The notes under the pieces are model-generated. The model ran no database searches and was not told where the DNA came from. It saw only the letters and a list, made by a program, of their open reading frames with translations. Shown one piece after another: positions 7,542 to 18,536 of a stretch of DNA of 40,000 nt. The stretch comes from Dialister sp. i34-0019-2H8. GTDB taxonomy: Bacteria > Bacillota > Negativicutes > Veillonellales > Dialisteraceae. The stretch covers positions 1,542,826-1,582,825 of the forward strand of contig NZ_BAABYQ010000001.1 in assembly GCF_042846925.1 (NCBI RefSeq), written 5' to 3'. The position numbers and the translations under genes are program-made. Within the stretch, counting starts at the first letter, position 1. Each line of letters begins with the position of its first letter.

Positions 7542-8036
7542 TTAATCTAAATAAACAGCGTCGATTTCGCCTTTACTTTGTGCAGCTTCGACCTGCGCCT
7601 TTGCCGTGCGGTATGCAATATGCAGGAGATTGGAGCGTACGGCGACCGCTGCTACAATAGCGCGCAGGTCCTGAACCGTAACCACCGCATCATCATTGTC
7701 TGCCGTGGTCCAGCTGATGCTTGCGCCTTCTCCCTGAAGCGCCAACGCGATTATTGCTGCTGCGATGCGGTCGCGAGCTTTACTGTCGTAATCGTAGAGG
7801 TGCCCGCCATACGCAATCGGCTCAACCTCCGCATCATCGCGTTGGCGCTTCAGTTCAAAAATTTTGCGGGTGCGGATATTTTCAATCGGCTCCTCAGCCT
7901 CACCGATAGCAACACCTAAACATCCCAAATCAGCATCCGATATGCTGAGTGGGATAAATGTGCCATCCTGTCCCATGGCCTCTGCCAAATCATAGAGGTT
8001 GTTATAGATATTGTCCTTGTATGTGTATGTTTTCAC
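7542..8036 (-). CDS. phage protein, DUF4376-like (fibre-associated)
   Basis: AGGAGG 6 nt before GTG 8036. The pattern ...YDYDSKARDRIAAAI...WTTADNDDAVVTVQDLRAI...AKAQVEAA..GEIDAV recalls DUF4376 domains found beside tail fibres. Confidence 0.55.
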   Translation of the reverse strand: MKTYTYKDNIYNNLYDLAEAMGQDGTFIPLSISDADLGCLGVAIGEAEEPIENIRTRKIFELKRQRDDAEVEPIAYGGHLYDYDSKARDRIAAAIIALALQGEGASISWTTADNDDAVVTVQDLRAIVAAVAVRSNLLHIAYRTAKAQVEAAQSKGEIDAVYLD

Positions 8037-9057: not shown

Positions 9058-9663
9058 TTATATAATCGTTTCATTAACAATAGCGGTAATCTCATCATCA
9101 GTCGCCAACGGAAAGTCATTGATTTTCATGTAGGCAGATAAGTCGACCACGCCGGAGAGATTATCCCATGCGTTGCCATTCCAAACTACGTTATCCCCGG
9201 CTTTGATTCCGTTAGAAGCATCAGCCGCCACAACGTTGTATACATCGCCTACAGCCTTCCCGTTAACGGGGAGCTCCGCATAGGTGTTCACGCTCCCGCG
9301 GTACTTGTAAACGGTTGTGATGTCTGCTTTTTTCGCATAAGTACGATCTATATCGGCGCTCTTTGCGTAGAGAGACAGGTCCAATTGCCCCTGAATAGCG
9401 GAAATCGTACCGTCTTCGGAAATAGTCACATTATTGCCCGCCTTGACGCCACCGATGGTGCTTGCTGTCGGTGCTGGAAGGACGTAGTTATTCGCTCCTG
9501 CTGCTACGCCTGCGAGCTTTGCTTTTTCTGCGGCAGTATAATCATTGGTAGAAAGGCCTTTCCCAGTTTCCTTCCTGACAAAAAGGCTATTCAGCTTTGC
9601 AATCAAAGCGGTCATAGCGGCAGCAAAATTGGATTTTCTCAGAATTTTATCAGTAGTAGCCAT
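9058..9663 (-). CDS. tail-fibre-like protein
   Basis: KGLSTNDYTAAEKAKLAGV and repeated ...TISEDGTIS... fibre-repeat motifs. Confidence 0.7.
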   Translation of the reverse strand: MATTDKILRKSNFAAAMTALIAKLNSLFVRKETGKGLSTNDYTAAEKAKLAGVAAGANNYVLPAPTASTIGGVKAGNNVTISEDGTISAIQGQLDLSLYAKSADIDRTYAKKADITTVYKYRGSVNTYAELPVNGKAVGDVYNVVAADASNGIKAGDNVVWNGNAWDNLSGVVDLSAYMKINDFPLATDDEITAIVNETII

Positions 9664-10841: not shown

Positions 10842-11344
10842 GTTGGACTCCTCTTTTTAATTACTGCAGCTAAATTATGGACCATAGACACGCCAGCATC
10901 GTCCAGGTTTTCCACGATGCTGAGGAGCTCAGTGGATGCCAGGTAGGCAATCACGATCTGTGCAAAATTGACATGACCCACAAGGATATCGGCTAGACCG
11001 CCAGCAATCACCAAAAACATATAAGCAAAGATTTTCCCTGCAAACTGCGTCTTCATTTCATGGCTATTGATGATACGAGCCCGATGTGCCGCTGGAATGC
11101 CTCGGATGGAATCAACCAGCGAGGGCTTTTCCACGTTGTTCTCAATCAGCCAGTGATAAGACAGGGCGATAAATTTGGCGAACAAGTCAAGAGCCACCAA
11201 CACGGCGAATGCGGTAAAAAGCATGATGTGCTTCGACATGGCGATGAGTAAGATCCCCATAAGAATTTTGTAGGGCCAGCCATCCGGGATACTGCAAATC
11301 GCACGATCGGCGGAATTGTAAATTTGAATGAAGATTTCAGTCAT
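10838..11344 (-). CDS. holin (phi LC3 / TcdE-like family)
   Basis: Multi-pass hydrophobic protein with ...STELLSIVENLDDAGV... near the C-terminus, immediately upstream of the endolysin. Confidence 0.8.
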   Translation of the reverse strand: MTEIFIQIYNSADRAICSIPDGWPYKILMGILLIAMSKHIMLFTAFAVLVALDLFAKFIALSYHWLIENNVEKPSLVDSIRGIPAAHRARIINSHEMKTQFAGKIFAYMFLVIAGGLADILVGHVNFAQIVIAYLASTELLSIVENLDDAGVSMVHNLAAVIKKRSPT

Positions 11345-11478
11345 GTTTTATCCTCCGCATCTTTCTTTTCTTCCGTTTCATCTTTGGGTGTCAGCGGCTT
11401 CGATCTGATACATTTCGCATTAGTGCAAAGTCCAGTCTTATTATCCATCTTGCGATGGCAAAGGAAACATCTTTCCAT
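11341..11478 (-). CDS. small zinc-ribbon protein (45 aa)
   Basis: Starts directly after the upstream stop and ends in an ATGA overlap with the holin. Begins MERCFLCHRKMDNKTGLCTNAKC (CxxC...CxxxxC). Confidence 0.45.
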   Translation of the reverse strand: MERCFLCHRKMDNKTGLCTNAKCIRSKPLTPKDETEEKKDAEDKT

Positions 11479-11910
11479 TTAAATCGCTCCTCTCTTTTCT
11501 GTGTATTCTGCAACCAGTTCTTCTCTTTCAGCTTTGAGGTCATTGTAGTAGTCCTCATCTTCTACGGCTTTTGCTTTCGCCATTTCTGTTTCGATATCGC
11601 TGATTTTTGTTGAGTATTCCGCATCAAGAGATGCGAGTGCTGCCTCGCGCTTCTCGTCCTCTGTTGGTTCGGGCCGCGGCACGTACTCCCCGTTCTTGTA
11701 AAGCAGATCATGCTGTAAGGCGTTATTATAGGTCAAAGCATCCTGCACTACATGCGTAAAGGTTGGATACTGGTTATTTGCCAGCTCTTCCAGCTCCTCT
11801 ACCGTCTCCCCATGCACACCGGTGACGTAGGATGTGACACGTTCCCCGCTCTCCTCGTAAATGGAAACATACGTGAGAGCAGGGTTCGTGATAGAAATTG
11901 ATTCACTCAT
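11479..11910 (-). CDS. hypothetical phage protein
   Basis: AAGGAGGG lies before ATG 11910. 143-aa acidic protein, no family recognised. Confidence 0.7.
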   Translation of the reverse strand: MSESISITNPALTYVSIYEESGERVTSYVTGVHGETVEELEELANNQYPTFTHVVQDALTYNNALQHDLLYKNGEYVPRPEPTEDEKREAALASLDAEYSTKISDIETEMAKAKAVEDEDYYNDLKAEREELVAEYTEKRGAI

Positions 11911-11936
11911 TTTTACCCTCCTTGAAAGGAAACACT

Positions 11937-12942
11937 ATGAAAAATCCAAACGGTTATGGCTGTGTCAAACATTTAAGCGGATCACGGAGGAATCCGTTCG
12001 CCTTTGTTGTAACAGACCACGGAAAACAGATAGTGAAGGGCTACTTTCCTACCAAAATGGACGCACTCGCCTATCAGGTTGAATACTGGAATATGCATGG
12101 CCGCACCCGTCTTTCTGAAATCACACTTGAAGAATTGTACGCCGAATGGCTGCCAGCGCACCGCCCCCTACGTTTCTGAAAGCACCGTGCGAAGCTATCA
12201 ATCAGCCTATGGTCATCTCTATCCCCTCTATGGCATGCCAATCAAGGAAATCAAATACAAGCACATGCAAGCCGCCCTGGACGCCATGGGTGGCTTATCT
12301 TATGCAAGCAAAAAGAAAGTACGCAATCTCCTATCACTGCTCTGGGCATATGCAAGGCAGATGGACTACACAAGCAATGACTATACCGGCCTGCTACGTA
12401 TAGGAAAGAACCGCCCTGTGAACCCACATCACGCTATCAGCCGCCGCAAAGTCAATGCCCTATGGAAGATGACAGACGTTCCCGGCATCGATATCATCCT
12501 CATACTGATCTACACCGGCCTGAGAAACGGCGAGCTCCGCGCCCTGCTGAAATCCGATGTAAACCGTCGGCAGAAATACATCCGCATACGGAAATCAAAA
12601 ACCGCGGCAGGCGTGCGTATCATACCTATCCATAGCCGCATATGGCCTTTTGTAGAAGTGCGCCTATCCTGCAATGGTTCCCATCTGATAACCGACGATA
12701 GCGGCATGCCCTATACATATAGCCGTCTAGCCCGCCTTTTCACCCATGTTATGGAATTGGTGCACGGCGAAAAGCATAAGCTCCACGACACCCGCCACAC
12801 CTGCGCCACGTGGCTTGATGACGCCGAGGTGAATGACAACGCCAAGAAAATGATTCTCGGGCATGCACGCAATGATGTGACGAACGGCGTCTATACCCAT
12901 AAAAACTTGCGCCAGCTGCGGAAAACCATCGAGAAAATCTGA
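11937..12942 (+). pseudogene. tyrosine recombinase (phage-integrase family with AP2-like N-terminal DNA-binding domain), frameshifted at a C5 run
   Basis: Frame 1 (11937-12179) reads MKNPNGYGCVKHLSGSRRNPFAFVV...GYFPTKMDALAY...LEELYAEWLPAHRP. Frame 2 (to 12942) reads YVSESTVRSYQSAYGHL...IRKSKTAAGVRIIPI...HDTRHTCATWL...LGHA...YTH. Removing one C from 12164-12168 joins the two frames. Confidence 0.8.
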
Positions 12943-12981
12943 TACCAACCTGTTACTAACGGCTACCTATTGCAACAAAAA

Positions 12982-13013
12982 AGTATCGCGGATATCGAAT
13001 GATCCGTGATACT
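12982..13013. terminator. 12-bp hairpin after the recombinase gene
   Basis: AGTATCGCGGAT pairs with ATCCGTGATACT. A6 precedes the hairpin and a weak T tail follows. Confidence 0.4.
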
Positions 13014-13116
13014 GATTTGTCCCATAGAAAGCCCACGATTTAGCCAGTTTTCGCTCTTTCTGTACAGAGCAATGCGGGGCGGCTGAGATTAGAAAATACG
13101 CGACGGAGACTGAAAA

Positions 13117-13130
13117 TATACAGGGTGGAA
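13117..13130 (+). repeat. crossover-site candidate A
   Basis: TATACAGGGTGGAA, 14/14 identical to the reverse complement of 13747-13760. Confidence 0.7.
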
Positions 13131-13312
13131 ACTGCGGGACTAGCACCAAAATTGGCTTCCCAGTTGCATTCCCAAAATTTTGCGGAGCCGTCACTTTAGG
13201 ACAGATTTATGGCGGTAACAGGAGTGACCATTACGGAAACCTCGGGAAAATAACAGCGACAGATTTCACTAAAGACAGCTGGAATAGTATGTACATCGCT
13301 ATTGGCATATAG
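13121..13312 (+). other. silent alternative tail-fibre tip cassette A (63 codons, no start)
   Basis: QGGNCGTSTKIGFPVAFPKFCGAVTLGQIYGGNRSDHYGNLGKITATDFTKDSWNSMYIAIGI*. Compare the expressed tip QGG...VSYPIAFPNACFTITGS...EWVAIGR*. Confidence 0.7.
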
Positions 13313-13324
13313 ACAGGGTGGAAT
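13313..13324 (+). repeat. crossover-site candidate B
   Basis: ACAGGGTGGAAT, 12/12 identical to the reverse complement of 13746-13757. It directly follows the TAG of cassette A. Confidence 0.7.
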
Positions 13325-13508
13325 TGGTGGTTCCGGTTTCACATATCCGCTTGCCCTGTCTAGGGTTTTGACAGTTGCGTTTTCGCTCAATAGCGGCGTC
13401 TGGGCTTATAACTGGTATACGCAAGATTCGAAGGTAAATATCAGCAATACAGATGCATCAAACCCCAAAGGATTTCCTTACAATTGGTTGGTTATTGGCA
13501 TTGCTTAA
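13314..13508 (+). other. silent alternative tail-fibre tip cassette B (64 codons, no start)
   Basis: QGGIGGSGFTYPLALSRVLTVAFSLNSGVWAYNWYTQDSKVNISNTDASNPKGFPYNWLVIGIA*. Its stop overlaps the expressed gene stop in the palindrome TTAA (13505-13508). Confidence 0.75.
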
Positions 13509-14416
13509 CGGCCGATAGCTACCCACTCGAAGTATTGACCTTGCTGCTCTGTACCGATCGCATAGCGAAATTGTGATTCATTTTTCCAGACAATGTGGTG
13601 ACCGGTTCGGTACGCATACCTATCATTCTTGTTGCGTTCTGGGCTGCCTGTAATCGTAAAGCATGCATTAGGGAATGCAATAGGGTAGCTGACAGTGTAA
13701 GCAGGCGTGGCCCCATCGTTCTCCCAGTTCTTTCCATTGTTGTGCATTCCACCCTGTATAATTAGCGGCACCGCGCCGCTAAGCTTCACCCACCATGCAT
13801 TAGCGTTTGACACATCGCCTGCAATAACCCCAACACCAGGCTCATTGATAGCCCCAATAGCCGTACGCACTTCTGCTGCCGTCGCTTTACCAAGTACGTC
13901 GCGCATGAATTTTGACAGACTGGCAAGAGATGCTGCGTTCGCTCCTGTGAAGTAAGGTAATTTATCAACTGATGGACTGAGTCCGCCTAATGCTTTTAGT
14001 GCAGTAGTTAAATCAACTTCGATATCAGCATTATCACTTCCATCAAAAGAAGCAGCCTTGCCCGTCAGACAATCTCCAATAACGTTGATGTATCTAGCCG
14101 TTTTCAGCTTAGTGGCAGATGCTGCATTTCCCGCAATGCCATTAGCATGGGATTGGGCGCTTTTGTTATGATTTGCAAGCGTATCATCTCCGGCTGCTTT
14201 GTTAGCATCAATAGCTTCTTTTAATCGGGCATCGTTAGAGAAGAGCTGACTTGCCATGTCGTTTTCCAGTTTATAATGAACCGGATCAGATGAGATTCGC
14301 TGCGGAAATCCGTCGGAATTGAAGTCAAGAGTATCATCGATTCCGTCTGTTGGTCTTGTCACATTCCCCGCCGAAGCGGGAAAATCAGTTTTCCATTTAT
14401 CAAGATATTTTGCCAT
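13505..14416 (-). CDS. tail fibre protein with gp53-like distal knob
   Basis: GGGAGGAATAGAC lies before ATG 14416. ...ATKLKTARYINVIGD...LPYFTGANAASLASLS...AAEVRTAIGA... are fibre shaft motifs. The C-terminal ...IIQGG...YPIAFPNACFTITGS...WVAIGR is a receptor-binding-knob pattern. Confidence 0.85.
   Translation of the reverse strand: MAKYLDKWKTDFPASAGNVTRPTDGIDDTLDFNSDGFPQRISSDPVHYKLENDMASQLFSNDARLKEAIDANKAAGDDTLANHNKSAQSHANGIAGNAASATKLKTARYINVIGDCLTGKAASFDGSDNADIEVDLTTALKALGGLSPSVDKLPYFTGANAASLASLSKFMRDVLGKATAAEVRTAIGAINEPGVGVIAGDVSNANAWWVKLSGAVPLIIQGGMHNNGKNWENDGATPAYTVSYPIAFPNACFTITGSPERNKNDRYAYRTGHHIVWKNESQFRYAIGTEQQGQYFEWVAIGR
13746..13760 (-). repeat. crossover-site candidate C inside the expressed tail-fibre gene
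   Basis: Minus strand TATACAGGGTGGAAT encodes I-Q-G-G-M at the start of the distal domain. Confidence 0.7.
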
Positions 14417-14418
14417 GT

Positions 14419-14958
14419 CTATTCCTCCCATTTAGTAATGGACGAACCATAGGTATATTTCCCATCAAATTGGATTTTTCCATTCCATGAAAAGCCTAGA
14501 TACACATTGAGTCCCAAATGTGCCGGCTTGTAATAGATGATTGTATTCTGCATCTGTTTCAAATCCTCTGTATTTGTGGATGTAGTGTAGATATTGAAAT
14601 AGTACTTGTCGTTATGTTCCTCGATGTATCCATATCCGTAGGCATTCACCACTTTCCCCAAAAAAGATACCGTGCTGGTTTGCGTACCTTGCAGCTTAAC
14701 CAGCACTTTTTTGCGCCGTTGTTCATAAGTATCTTCCGGGCTAGGGTGCAGGTCCAGCACTCGTTCCCACATGGATAGTCCCCAAGTCGCTTTCTCGACG
14801 AAAAACTGATTCAGCGCATCGAGAATAGCATTACGGATGTTTTCATGCTCCCATGAACACGCCTCACATACTGCACGGAAATGAGGATCTTTTTTTAGAA
14901 AAGGCGGCAAGTACTGCGTGATATCTATTTTGTCAGATGACCTTAGTAGTCTAGTCAA
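14419..14958 (-). CDS. XkdU/YmfQ-like (DUF2313) baseplate/tail protein
   Basis: Position after baseplate J. LPPFLKKDPHF...EHENIRNAILD...YEQRRKKVLVKL pattern. Confidence 0.8.
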   Translation of the reverse strand: MTRLLRSSDKIDITQYLPPFLKKDPHFRAVCEACSWEHENIRNAILDALNQFFVEKATWGLSMWERVLDLHPSPEDTYEQRRKKVLVKLQGTQTSTVSFLGKVVNAYGYGYIEEHNDKYYFNIYTTSTNTEDLKQMQNTIIYYKPAHLGLNVYLGFSWNGKIQFDGKYTYGSSITKWEE

Positions 14959-17832: not shown

Positions 17833-18536
17833 TTGATGATCAACCTGCCAATCTTATCCGCGTTATTGATAGCCAAATCTTTCAGATCATTGCTTTGGGC
17901 AATACGACGCCATTTGTTGGCCTGCCCGTAGCATTTCTTGGCCACGTCCACCACATCCTTCGCCTTTTTCAGTTTAGCTGCTAAATCTGCTTTTTTGTCT
18001 GGCGATGGTCTGTCTTTCAAGCCCGTGGTCTTATCTACCTGCTTATTGTTGTTGGCAAGTGGCGTATTCAGATCCTTGTACTCGGTGAGAGTCAAAGCGT
18101 AGTAAATATCCCGACTTCCATCCTGTTCTTTGTAATCGAATTTCATGATACCGGTCATAAGGTTGACCGGCGAATCAGTGATAATGATTCTGACAGGCTT
18201 TCTGCTTTCCTTCCACTTCCTTAGTTTTTCGACGAAAAAAGACGGTTCGAGTGCATCCCCAACTACAAAGGGGTAGTCATGTACCGAAGCTGGAAAAAAA
18301 CACTGGAAAGAAATCCGTTGCGCCTGAGGCAGCCCAAAGACGAGTGCTTCGCCTACCTGCTCGACGTTGACAACCTTATTCCCCTGCCCGGTAGATACCT
18401 CGTATACACGCGGCGTAACAGGCAGCGTGACTTTTTCTGTTTCACAAGAAAGAATGATCTGCCGCTTCGAGCTGCCTCCACCTAAGATTGCGGAGGCGAT
18501 ATTTAACGCGGTACCAAGTGCTCCCCATGCCTTCAT
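17829..18536 (-). CDS. XkdP-like tail protein with degenerate LysM-like motif
   Basis: Immediately downstream of the tape measure. C-terminal ...VAKKCYGQANKWRRIAQSNDLKDL... is LysM-like. Confidence 0.65.
   Translation of the reverse strand: MKAWGALGTALNIASAILGGGSSKRQIILSCETEKVTLPVTPRVYEVSTGQGNKVVNVEQVGEALVFGLPQAQRISFQCFFPASVHDYPFVVGDALEPSFFVEKLRKWKESRKPVRIIITDSPVNLMTGIMKFDYKEQDGSRDIYYALTLTEYKDLNTPLANNNKQVDKTTGLKDRPSPDKKADLAAKLKKAKDVVDVAKKCYGQANKWRRIAQSNDLKDLAINNADKIGRLIIK

Follow-up and report, generated by a model that had tools for sequence, protein, structure and literature searches.

We analysed a window of 40,000 nt from the genome of Dialister sp. i34-0019-2H8, within which all positions given here are numbered, and we propose that a locus in the late region of its PBSX-like contractile-tail prophage is a multiple-inversion switch (shufflon) for the receptor-binding 'foot' domain of the tail fibre, a reading to which we assign a probability of about 85%. 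The original prediction, made from the sequence of this window, had interpreted the locus in the same way, and the interpretation is supported by permuted arrays in relatives, by silent tips that are expressed elsewhere, by structural models of the tips as fibre feet, by a fixed spacing between the array and the recombinase gene and by the joint loss of the two. It stands on the direct observation of the sites, of the reading frames, of the homology or fold of the tips, of the family to which the recombinase belongs and of a recent rearrangement exactly at the sites in relatives. The related loci used for comparison are fetched contigs, labelled L001 and so on, and comprise more than 20 Dialister or Veillonellaceae contigs from independent assemblies of different projects.

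The fibre gene runs on the minus strand from position 14416 to position 13505 and encodes a protein of 303 amino acids (aa), which is matched by PHROG tail-fibre families (Table 1). An 11-mer, ACAGGGTGGAA, occurs in three exact copies within 640 bp, at 13120–13130 (+), 13313–13323 (+) and 13747–13757 (−), and nowhere else in the 40 kb. One additional copy with a single mismatch is located at 18116, and the resulting count of four was reached in none of 100 shuffled sequences (mean of 0.53 hits); the sites are thus not a product of chance. A repeat search returned inverted repeats pairing 13114–13130 with 13747–13763 (17 nt, 94%) for sites A and C, and 13310–13324 with 13746–13760 (15 nt, 93%) for sites B and C, in agreement with the three sites, their coordinates and their 14/14 and 12/12 matches as originally proposed. 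Exact translation also confirmed the earlier description of the coding parts of cassettes A (13121–13312, +) and B (13314–13508, +) as frames without a start, and the window sequence bears out two further details of it: the TAG of cassette A (13310–13312) abuts site B, and the stops of cassette B and of the expressed tip overlap in a shared TTAA (13505–13508). A 22-nt inverted repeat (13155–13176 with 13668–13689) was also considered as a recombination site and was rejected, as it corresponds to the homologous stretch of tips A and C that codes for FP(V/I)AFP. The single-mismatch copy, ACAGGATGGAA at 18116–18126 (−), lies within the gene for a 235-aa protein in the baseplate region, beside the tape-measure gene, and is kept in all relatives; it is probably a coincidence.

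Table 1. Features of the putative fibre-switch locus, in window coordinates.
Feature	Position	Strand	Basis and remarks
143-aa gene	11479–11910	−	Far boundary of the module; the string of late/lysis genes (holin, GH25 lysin) resumes
Tyrosine recombinase, presumed invertase	11937–12942	+	Pfam Phage_integrase (PF00589), PHROG_1 integrase; frameshifted
Spacer, from the recombinase stop to the outermost site	12943–13116		Fixed length in a 15-locus alignment
Site A	13117–13130	+	TATACAGGGTGGAA; heads silent cassette A
Site A and silent cassette A, 63 codons plus stop, without start codon	13117–13312	+	Translation; homologous tips
Site B	13313–13323	+	Heads silent cassette B
Site B and silent cassette B, 64 codons plus stop, without credible start codon	13313–13508	+	Translation; homologous expressed tips
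Tip C, the variable tip currently expressed, 83 codons plus stop	13505–13756	−	PF21882 match; R1 pyocin match
Site C, inside the expressed fibre gene	13747–13760	−	Reads TATACAGGGTGGAA on the minus strand; encodes I-Q-G-G
Constant fibre shaft, 220 aa, ending ...AVPLII before Q-G-G	13757–14416	−	Open reading frame list; follows the Baseplate_J and Mu gp48-like genes

In the mechanism that we propose, a constant shaft of 220 aa would carry an exchangeable last domain of 62–83 aa, the two meeting at a short, asymmetric site that has the consensus TANACAGGGTGKAW and a core coding for Q-G-G. The alternative tips would be stored downstream of the expressed one, without promoter and without start codon, each headed by its own site, and the recombinase gene would follow the last cassette. 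By pairing the site within the fibre gene with an inverted copy, the recombinase would invert the intervening DNA, so that a new tip is fused in frame to the shaft and the old one is parked as a silent cassette. Recombination between sites C and B would invert 445 bp and give a fibre of 284 aa instead of 303 aa, and recombination between C and A would invert 638 bp and give a fibre of 283 aa instead of 303 aa. The latter event would leave cassette B in direct orientation, a mixed state that is seen in relatives. Since arrays with up to seven directly repeated sites persist, the recombinase would be expected to be biased to inversion over deletion.

The exchanged unit appears to be the distal receptor-binding foot domain of the fibre, as judged by sequence for tip C and by predicted fold for cassettes A and B. 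Tip C matches the Pfam family Gp53-like_C (PF21882) with an E-value of 9e-11 (42.6 bits, cut-off 24.9), the match of cassette A to this family is weak and just below the cut-off (E=1.3e-4, 22.9 bits) and the Pfam scan gave no sequence match between the family and cassette B. The junction together with tip C aligns by sequence with the R1 pyocin fibre (6cxb/6cl5, E=2e-4) over ...NGWW..LIVQ...FPIAFPSAC..., and a profile-profile comparison of the tips was significant for A against C (E=5e-4). AlphaFold2 models of cassettes A and B, built from an 86-row alignment, are both all-beta, with predicted local distance difference test (pLDDT) scores of 87.0 and 78.6, respectively. The earlier suggestion that these cassettes encode further tips of the same kind is supported by the structural comparison, in which both model as probable fibre foot domains: in a Foldseek search against 350,542 PDB chains, the R2 pyocin fibre 6ct8 was the top match for the two models (probability 0.99–1.0, template-modelling (TM) score of ~0.6; for cassette B, probability 0.99 and TM 0.64). 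Entry 6cl6 ranked second for cassette A and fourth for cassette B, and the cassette A model also matched AP22 gp53 (4mtm), the namesake of PF21882. On the basis of the model, a fibre-foot fold is probable for cassette B. By analogy with the fibre feet of R-pyocins, and given that Dialister is a diderm, we infer that different tips bind different outer-membrane glycans, in which case switching would alter the host range.

A search with the fibre protein returned 611 homologues, and in the best 120 of them the 220-aa shaft hardly varies. In the 83 aligned homologues at least 90% of the shaft columns are invariant and the tips are less than 30% identical; hypervariability sets in after ...IIQGG, the Q-G-G itself being invariant. 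Clustered at an identity of at least 50%, the tips together with the silent cassettes of the fetched loci make up about 40 families. Tips that are silent in the window are expressed in other genomes, as B-type tips (84–95% identical to cassette B) are found on a 96–97%-identical shaft in dozens of contigs and A-type tips (70% identical to cassette A) are expressed in P0008, P0021 and L013. The exact tip C is a silent cassette in L022, which also holds cassette A at 99.5% nucleotide identity.

The window and 24 related loci each possess at least three short specific sites, one of them in the target gene, together with 3′ segments that are in frame and start-less, which is the arrangement by which a shufflon is recognized. 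The arrays of the relatives contain 3–10 cassettes and lie between the fibre gene and an intact recombinase gene coding for 334–338 aa. Every cassette in these relatives begins at a site, for which 69 unique contexts yielded the consensus given above. The site within the fibre gene is always flanked by TAATTATA (followed by CAGGGTGG at site C, constant across all relatives) and the outermost site always by AAAATATA, followed by a likewise constant CAGGGTG. Sites are found in both orientations within arrays (L012, L013 and L022), as nested inversions predict, and internal sites follow the stop codon of the preceding cassette, as nested inversions would give. All of the cassettes examined (77/77) are intact open reading frames (ORFs).

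The orientation polymorphism that had been anticipated among homologous prophages was found in three comparisons. Loci L017 and L018, which come from different samples, share flanks of 2.1 kb and 2.4 kb at 99.9% identity and are 99.5% identical inside; what sets them apart is solely that the same three cassettes have been permuted and inverted, the breaks falling at the sites. From the sequences, this difference could be explained by two inversions, or by a single inversion in each of the two loci after a shared intermediate. Between L014 and L020 there is one inversion, which involves a pair of B- and C-type tips. Finally, the convergent B–C segment of the window (13304–13763) is inverted in L021 with 97.6% identity, and it is located elsewhere in the 10-cassette array of L022 with 98.3% identity.

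A Logan contig (L036, run DRR538050) is 100% identical to window positions 18416–13293, which cover the fibre gene, tip C and cassette B, and it ends 20 nt past site B. This end was not relied on as a sign of heterogeneity, its branch point being off from what a C × B inversion predicts at k=31 and other causes being possible. Contigs L002, L004, L007, L009 and L016 likewise break off within the array or at its edge, and in the L003 scaffold the array is interrupted by an N-gap with a duplicated cassette start. Such breaks fit the presence of mixed orientations in the samples and are not proof of it.

Other irregular arrangements were encountered among the relatives. At 5856–6229 of L005, two tips are fused in frame into a silent cassette of 125 aa (...YVITIG|GFSSGYITYP...), joined at GGTG, a microhomology that the conserved ...IGV end of the first tip has with the CAGGGTGG site heading the second; the arrangement resembles the outcome of an aberrant crossover or of a small deletion. 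In L012 (8118–8276), L015 (6995–7153) and L020 (6852–7005), the recombinase and cassette module is associated with a different fibre shaft, which shares only the last ~27 aa before Q-G-G (...NANAWWVKLGG..PLIIQGG). As the same module occurs with a different shaft, it appears to move between fibre genes.

The original prediction had placed a tyrosine recombinase in need of repair 175 nt from the array, and this was confirmed in each respect: its stop at 12942 lies 175 nt before site A, it belongs to PF00589 and it is frameshifted. In the window it is present as two overlapping ORFs, each 99–100% identical to the intact 334-aa protein of L005, and the downstream frame retains the catalytic motifs ...TGLRNGE..., ...HDTRHT... 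and ...GHA...VYTH. The intact homologue possesses the Pfam domains Phage_int_SAM_3 and Phage_integrase. About 60 residues without a Pfam match precede the SAM-like domain, and a Pfam scan of the N-terminal 75 aa matched no arm-binding domain model. In NCBIfam no specific model was reached, the only hits being weak, Xer-like and far below cut-off. The scanned ORFs of the window included no serine recombinase, and the PF00589 enzyme is the sole recombinase at the locus. A tblastn search against 72,556 plasmids (PLSDB, E<=1e-3) hit 56 records, with only two from Escherichia and two from Klebsiella and no block of enterobacterial shufflon plasmids, and a scan of IMG/VR with the recombinase returned two truncated loci only.

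Several features link this enzyme to the array. The outermost site lies 182 nt past the recombinase end in all close relatives (alignment of 15 loci). In L010 and L011, recombinases that are 55–58% identical flank arrays whose cores differ at synonymous positions and keep Q-G-G: the core ACAGGGTGGA contrasts with CCAAGGGGGA in L011 (4468–5393), and the core in L010 (7039–7298) is ACAGGGGGKA. The association of diverged recombinases with diverged cores that still encode Q-G-G suggests that enzyme and site co-diverged at synonymous positions. In L001, a fixed B tip is followed by 17 nt of the inverted end of tip C, then by the first 17–20 nt of the recombinase ORF and then by the 143-aa gene, as seen on comparison of L001 4856–4925 with L003 8716–9147 and L021 5017–4587. 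Since it keeps this vestige of the recombinase start, L001 is clearly a deletion derivative and not an ancestral state, the cassettes and the recombinase having been lost in a single deletion. The position in the late region, the fixed spacing, the divergence of the enzyme together with its core and the loss of the enzyme together with the array all favour the view that the adjacent recombinase is a dedicated invertase.

Several observations weigh against a working shufflon at this locus and have to be considered together with the explanations that could replace it. The evidence for alternative arrangements comes from comparisons between near-identical relatives, and the B-on and A-on proteins predicted for this strain are absent from a collection of 15 billion proteins queried by exact look-up. 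Regarding the tips, the Foldseek E-values are weak (0.05–0.2) for models of 63–64 aa, owing to the tiny size of the domains, so that only rank and probability favour the pyocin fibres, and the profile comparison of B was not significant with either C or A, the profiles being very shallow. The window recombinase carries a +1 frameshift at ~12164–12168 (codon ~77), where it has C5 against C4 in three intact relatives, and this may be either a real mutation that locks the switch with tip C on or a homopolymer sequencing error. Broken recombinases recur among the relatives, with a 37-bp deletion between ATGCAAGC direct repeats in L024 (5000–5975), a split into ORFs of 150 aa and 201 aa in L011 (3204–4225) and the full loss in L001, so that many copies may be frozen. 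Given this recurrent inactivation, the frameshift in the window may be genuine and the switch fixed with tip C on; the frameshift makes activity in this genome uncertain. The broken copies and the fixed B tip of L001, devoid of recombinase, are also what a static mosaic would lead one to expect, in which the cassettes are leftovers of horizontal or homologous exchange without any site-specific inversion and the repeats are just conserved Q-G-G codons, fibre tips being classic hot-spots of mosaicism. We regard this explanation as quite improbable. The conservation of the site exceeds the Q-G-G codons, extending to TANA on the 5′ side, is visible at the nucleotide level and holds at the non-coding outermost copy as well, and sites of 14 bp are too short for RecA-type exchange. 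Moreover, L017 and L018 are rearranged exactly at the sites in spite of their 99.9% identity, none of the 77 cassettes has decayed and L001 retains its recombinase vestige.

A different concern is the identity of the enzyme, as the adjacent recombinase could be the integrase of the prophage or belong to another mobile element, the inversions being then performed by another enzyme in trans. The nearest homologues in cultured phages, those of Butyrivibrio phage Arawn and Fusobacterium phage phiHugo (30–34% identity), are canonical integrases located beside repressor and lysogeny modules, which also weighs against the shufflon, and the window protein itself matches the PHROG_1 'integrase'. When the remaining large ORFs of the window were scanned with Pfam and PHROG, no other integrase was detected, a further point against a dedicated invertase that is nevertheless uninformative, since the 40-kb window stops short of the prophage's lysogeny end. 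An invertible fibre segment without recombinase has also been reported in bifidophages (PMC6109161). Even so, we consider this alternative unlikely, as the gene is embedded in the late region, with the fibre gene on one side and the lysis genes on the other, and shares with the array its spacing, its divergence and its loss. An assembly artefact, such as a mis-joined repeat in the fibre region, is hardly credible. Short-read contigs do often break here (the six mentioned above, L036 included, besides the gapped L003), but such breaks are themselves expected from a heterogeneous invertible region, the same architecture is shared by a contig of 2.5 Mb from an isolate and by over 20 independent assemblies, and L036 reproduces the fibre, tip C and cassette B of the window without a mismatch.

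The genes upstream of the locus encode terminase, an SPP1-type portal, tape measure, YqbQ-like, sheath-initiator, Baseplate_J and Mu-gp48-like proteins, and the recombinase is followed by the 143-aa gene and by genes for a holin and a GH25 lysin. A protein identical to the fibre is recorded as WP_390153034.1, encoded on the 2.5-Mb isolate contig of Dialister sp. i34-0019-2H8, and the nearest genomic relatives of the recombinase are in metagenome-assembled genomes of Dialister and Veillonellaceae. The host is therefore a diderm Negativicute; the original prediction had assigned the prophage to a Firmicute, which does not hold in the sense of a classical Gram-positive. A nucleotide search with 11800–14500 against 50,697 phage records gave no match, that collection thus holding no cultured relative.

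The holin and GH25 lysin genes are on the same strand as the fibre gene and 3′ of it, and in the interval 11479–14416 late transcription would thus traverse the silent cassettes and run antisense to the recombinase gene, unless a separate promoter exists. A scan of 11300–14500 for promoter and terminator consensus sequences gave nothing beyond the shuffled expectation. Past the lysin, further virion-like ORFs are found between 5338 and 9663. Two of them, at 7542–8036 and 9058–9663, are tail-fibre- or tail-protein-like, and a 454-aa ORF at 5338–6702, located away from the head module, is similar to head-morphogenesis proteins of the SPP1 gp7 type. These ORFs could represent cargo or what is left of a second phage. 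At the left window edge, a 474-aa ORF (1547–2971) belongs to the UPF0236 family (PF06782), which we take to be transposase-like; it might indicate the prophage boundary or the insertion of an insertion sequence element.

Among published systems, the nearest is the Rin shufflon of Bifidobacterium breve and B. longum prophages (Mavrich et al. 2018, PMC6109161), a phage-encoded, multi-cassette switch of the receptor-binding protein (RBP) driven by a tyrosine invertase, which has also been described in Eggerthella lenta prophages (2022; PMC8778435) and whose variants differ between prophage and virion genomes (PMC6109161). The claim of novelty in the original prediction stands in part only: our literature search found no fibre shufflon described for a PBSX-like myophage or for Negativicutes, but a multi-cassette switch operated by a tyrosine recombinase had been published in 2018. 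As in the Dialister locus, Rin consists of a constant RBP gene, an array of promoterless C-terminal cassettes and then the tyrosine recombinase, inside a prophage, and a short asymmetric crossover site (11 bp in Rin) heads every cassette. The rix site, TTCCCTAACCC, differs from the 11-mer of the window and its consensus, and also from the core variants of L010 and L011. The target of Rin is an RBP of siphophages resembling those of the lactococcal phages TP901-1 and 1358, in monoderm Actinobacteria, whereas in Dialister it would be the R-pyocin/AP22-gp53-type foot of the fibre of a PBSX-like myophage in a diderm Negativicute. By its published description, the Rin enzyme is Xer-like and has no N-terminal arm-type domain; the Dialister enzyme, of 334 aa, has ~60 residues before the SAM-like domain and its closest similarity is to phage integrases.

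With the shufflon of R64 and other IncI plasmids, the Dialister locus shares multiple inversion by a tyrosine recombinase (Rci), short asymmetric sites in both orientations, an in-frame C-terminal swap, an apparent bias of inversion over deletion and the targeting of the C-terminal, receptor-recognition part of a single protein. In R64, however, this protein is the conjugative pilus adhesin encoded by pilV on a plasmid instead of a phage fibre, the sfx site of 19 bp bears no relation to the Dialister site, and the tblastn search against plasmids detected no Rci-level similarity for the Dialister recombinase. Gin of phage Mu, Cin of P1, Min of p15B and the gin-driven fibre shufflon of Enterobacter phage FRphi (PMC13418256) also exchange the C-terminal part of a myophage fibre by inversion and thereby change the host range, with several cassettes in Min and FRphi. 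Gin, Cin and Min are small serine invertases that depend on Fis and an enhancer, and the invertible segment usually includes a chaperone (U/U′), unlike in Dialister, where the enzyme is of the tyrosine type and the cassettes are bare feet of 62–83 codons without a chaperone gene. A tail-fibre shufflon of BV01-like phages of Phocaeicola vulgatus is presented in a 2026 preprint (PMC13596623), which describes a gut temperate phage with a 1.7-kb multi-cassette region between the recombinase and the distal end of the fibre gene, directional 10-bp motifs and all configurations detected in reads. It differs from the Dialister locus in its motif (TGGGAGAACT), in its host (Bacteroidota) and in having three non-homologous cassettes that give six variants via different stop positions. 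The unit exchanged in Dialister probably corresponds to the feet of R-type pyocin and AP22 gp53 fibres (6cxb, 6cl5, 6ct8, 6cl6, 4mtm; PF21882), the Dialister tips being shorter (62–83 aa) and very diverse. R-pyocin and AP22 fibres are not known to switch by inversion.

A systematic survey has listed tail-fibre genes among the targets of programmed inversion (PMC9881135). Our literature search on fibre shufflons of Dialister, Negativicutes or PBSX-like myophages found none described, and it retrieved no characterised Dialister phage. The Dialister locus is thus of a kind already known and does not represent a new principle, and it differs from the closest published system in site, fibre fold, morphotype, host phylum and recombinase architecture. 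It is a clean and well-populated example, apparently undescribed, and notable for its scale, as a single phage can have up to 10 cassettes and the tips belong to about 40 families. We lean slightly towards a stronger proposal, namely that this switch evolved independently and is confined to the phages that infect diderm Firmicutes (Dialister, Veillonellaceae), that its invertase derives from a phage integrase, that it employs bare R-pyocin-like feet without chaperones, with up to 10 cassettes and at least 40 tip families, and that enzyme and core diverged together with Q-G-G remaining fixed. If this is true, it would be the first such system for Negativicutes and would offer a natural, compact platform with plug-in tips for studying or engineering host range in phages of a genus whose phages are uncultured.

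Dialister is a prevalent genus of the human gut and mouth, and the locus suggests that its prophages possess a programmed switch of host range whose parts can be named: a 14-bp site, a 334-aa recombinase and tips of 62–83 aa. With at least three defined fibre variants, host-range switching is directly testable. Loci of this type break short-read assemblies and their silent tips are annotated as small hypothetical ORFs, so that recognising the pattern improves both phage annotation and host prediction. The related loci extend to Negativicutes the fibre-shufflon principle known from Actinobacteria (Rin), Bacteroidota (BV01-like) and Proteobacteria (Gin/Min), and the different site, fibre fold and integrase-like enzyme of the Dialister system point to the repeated, independent invention of fibre shufflons.

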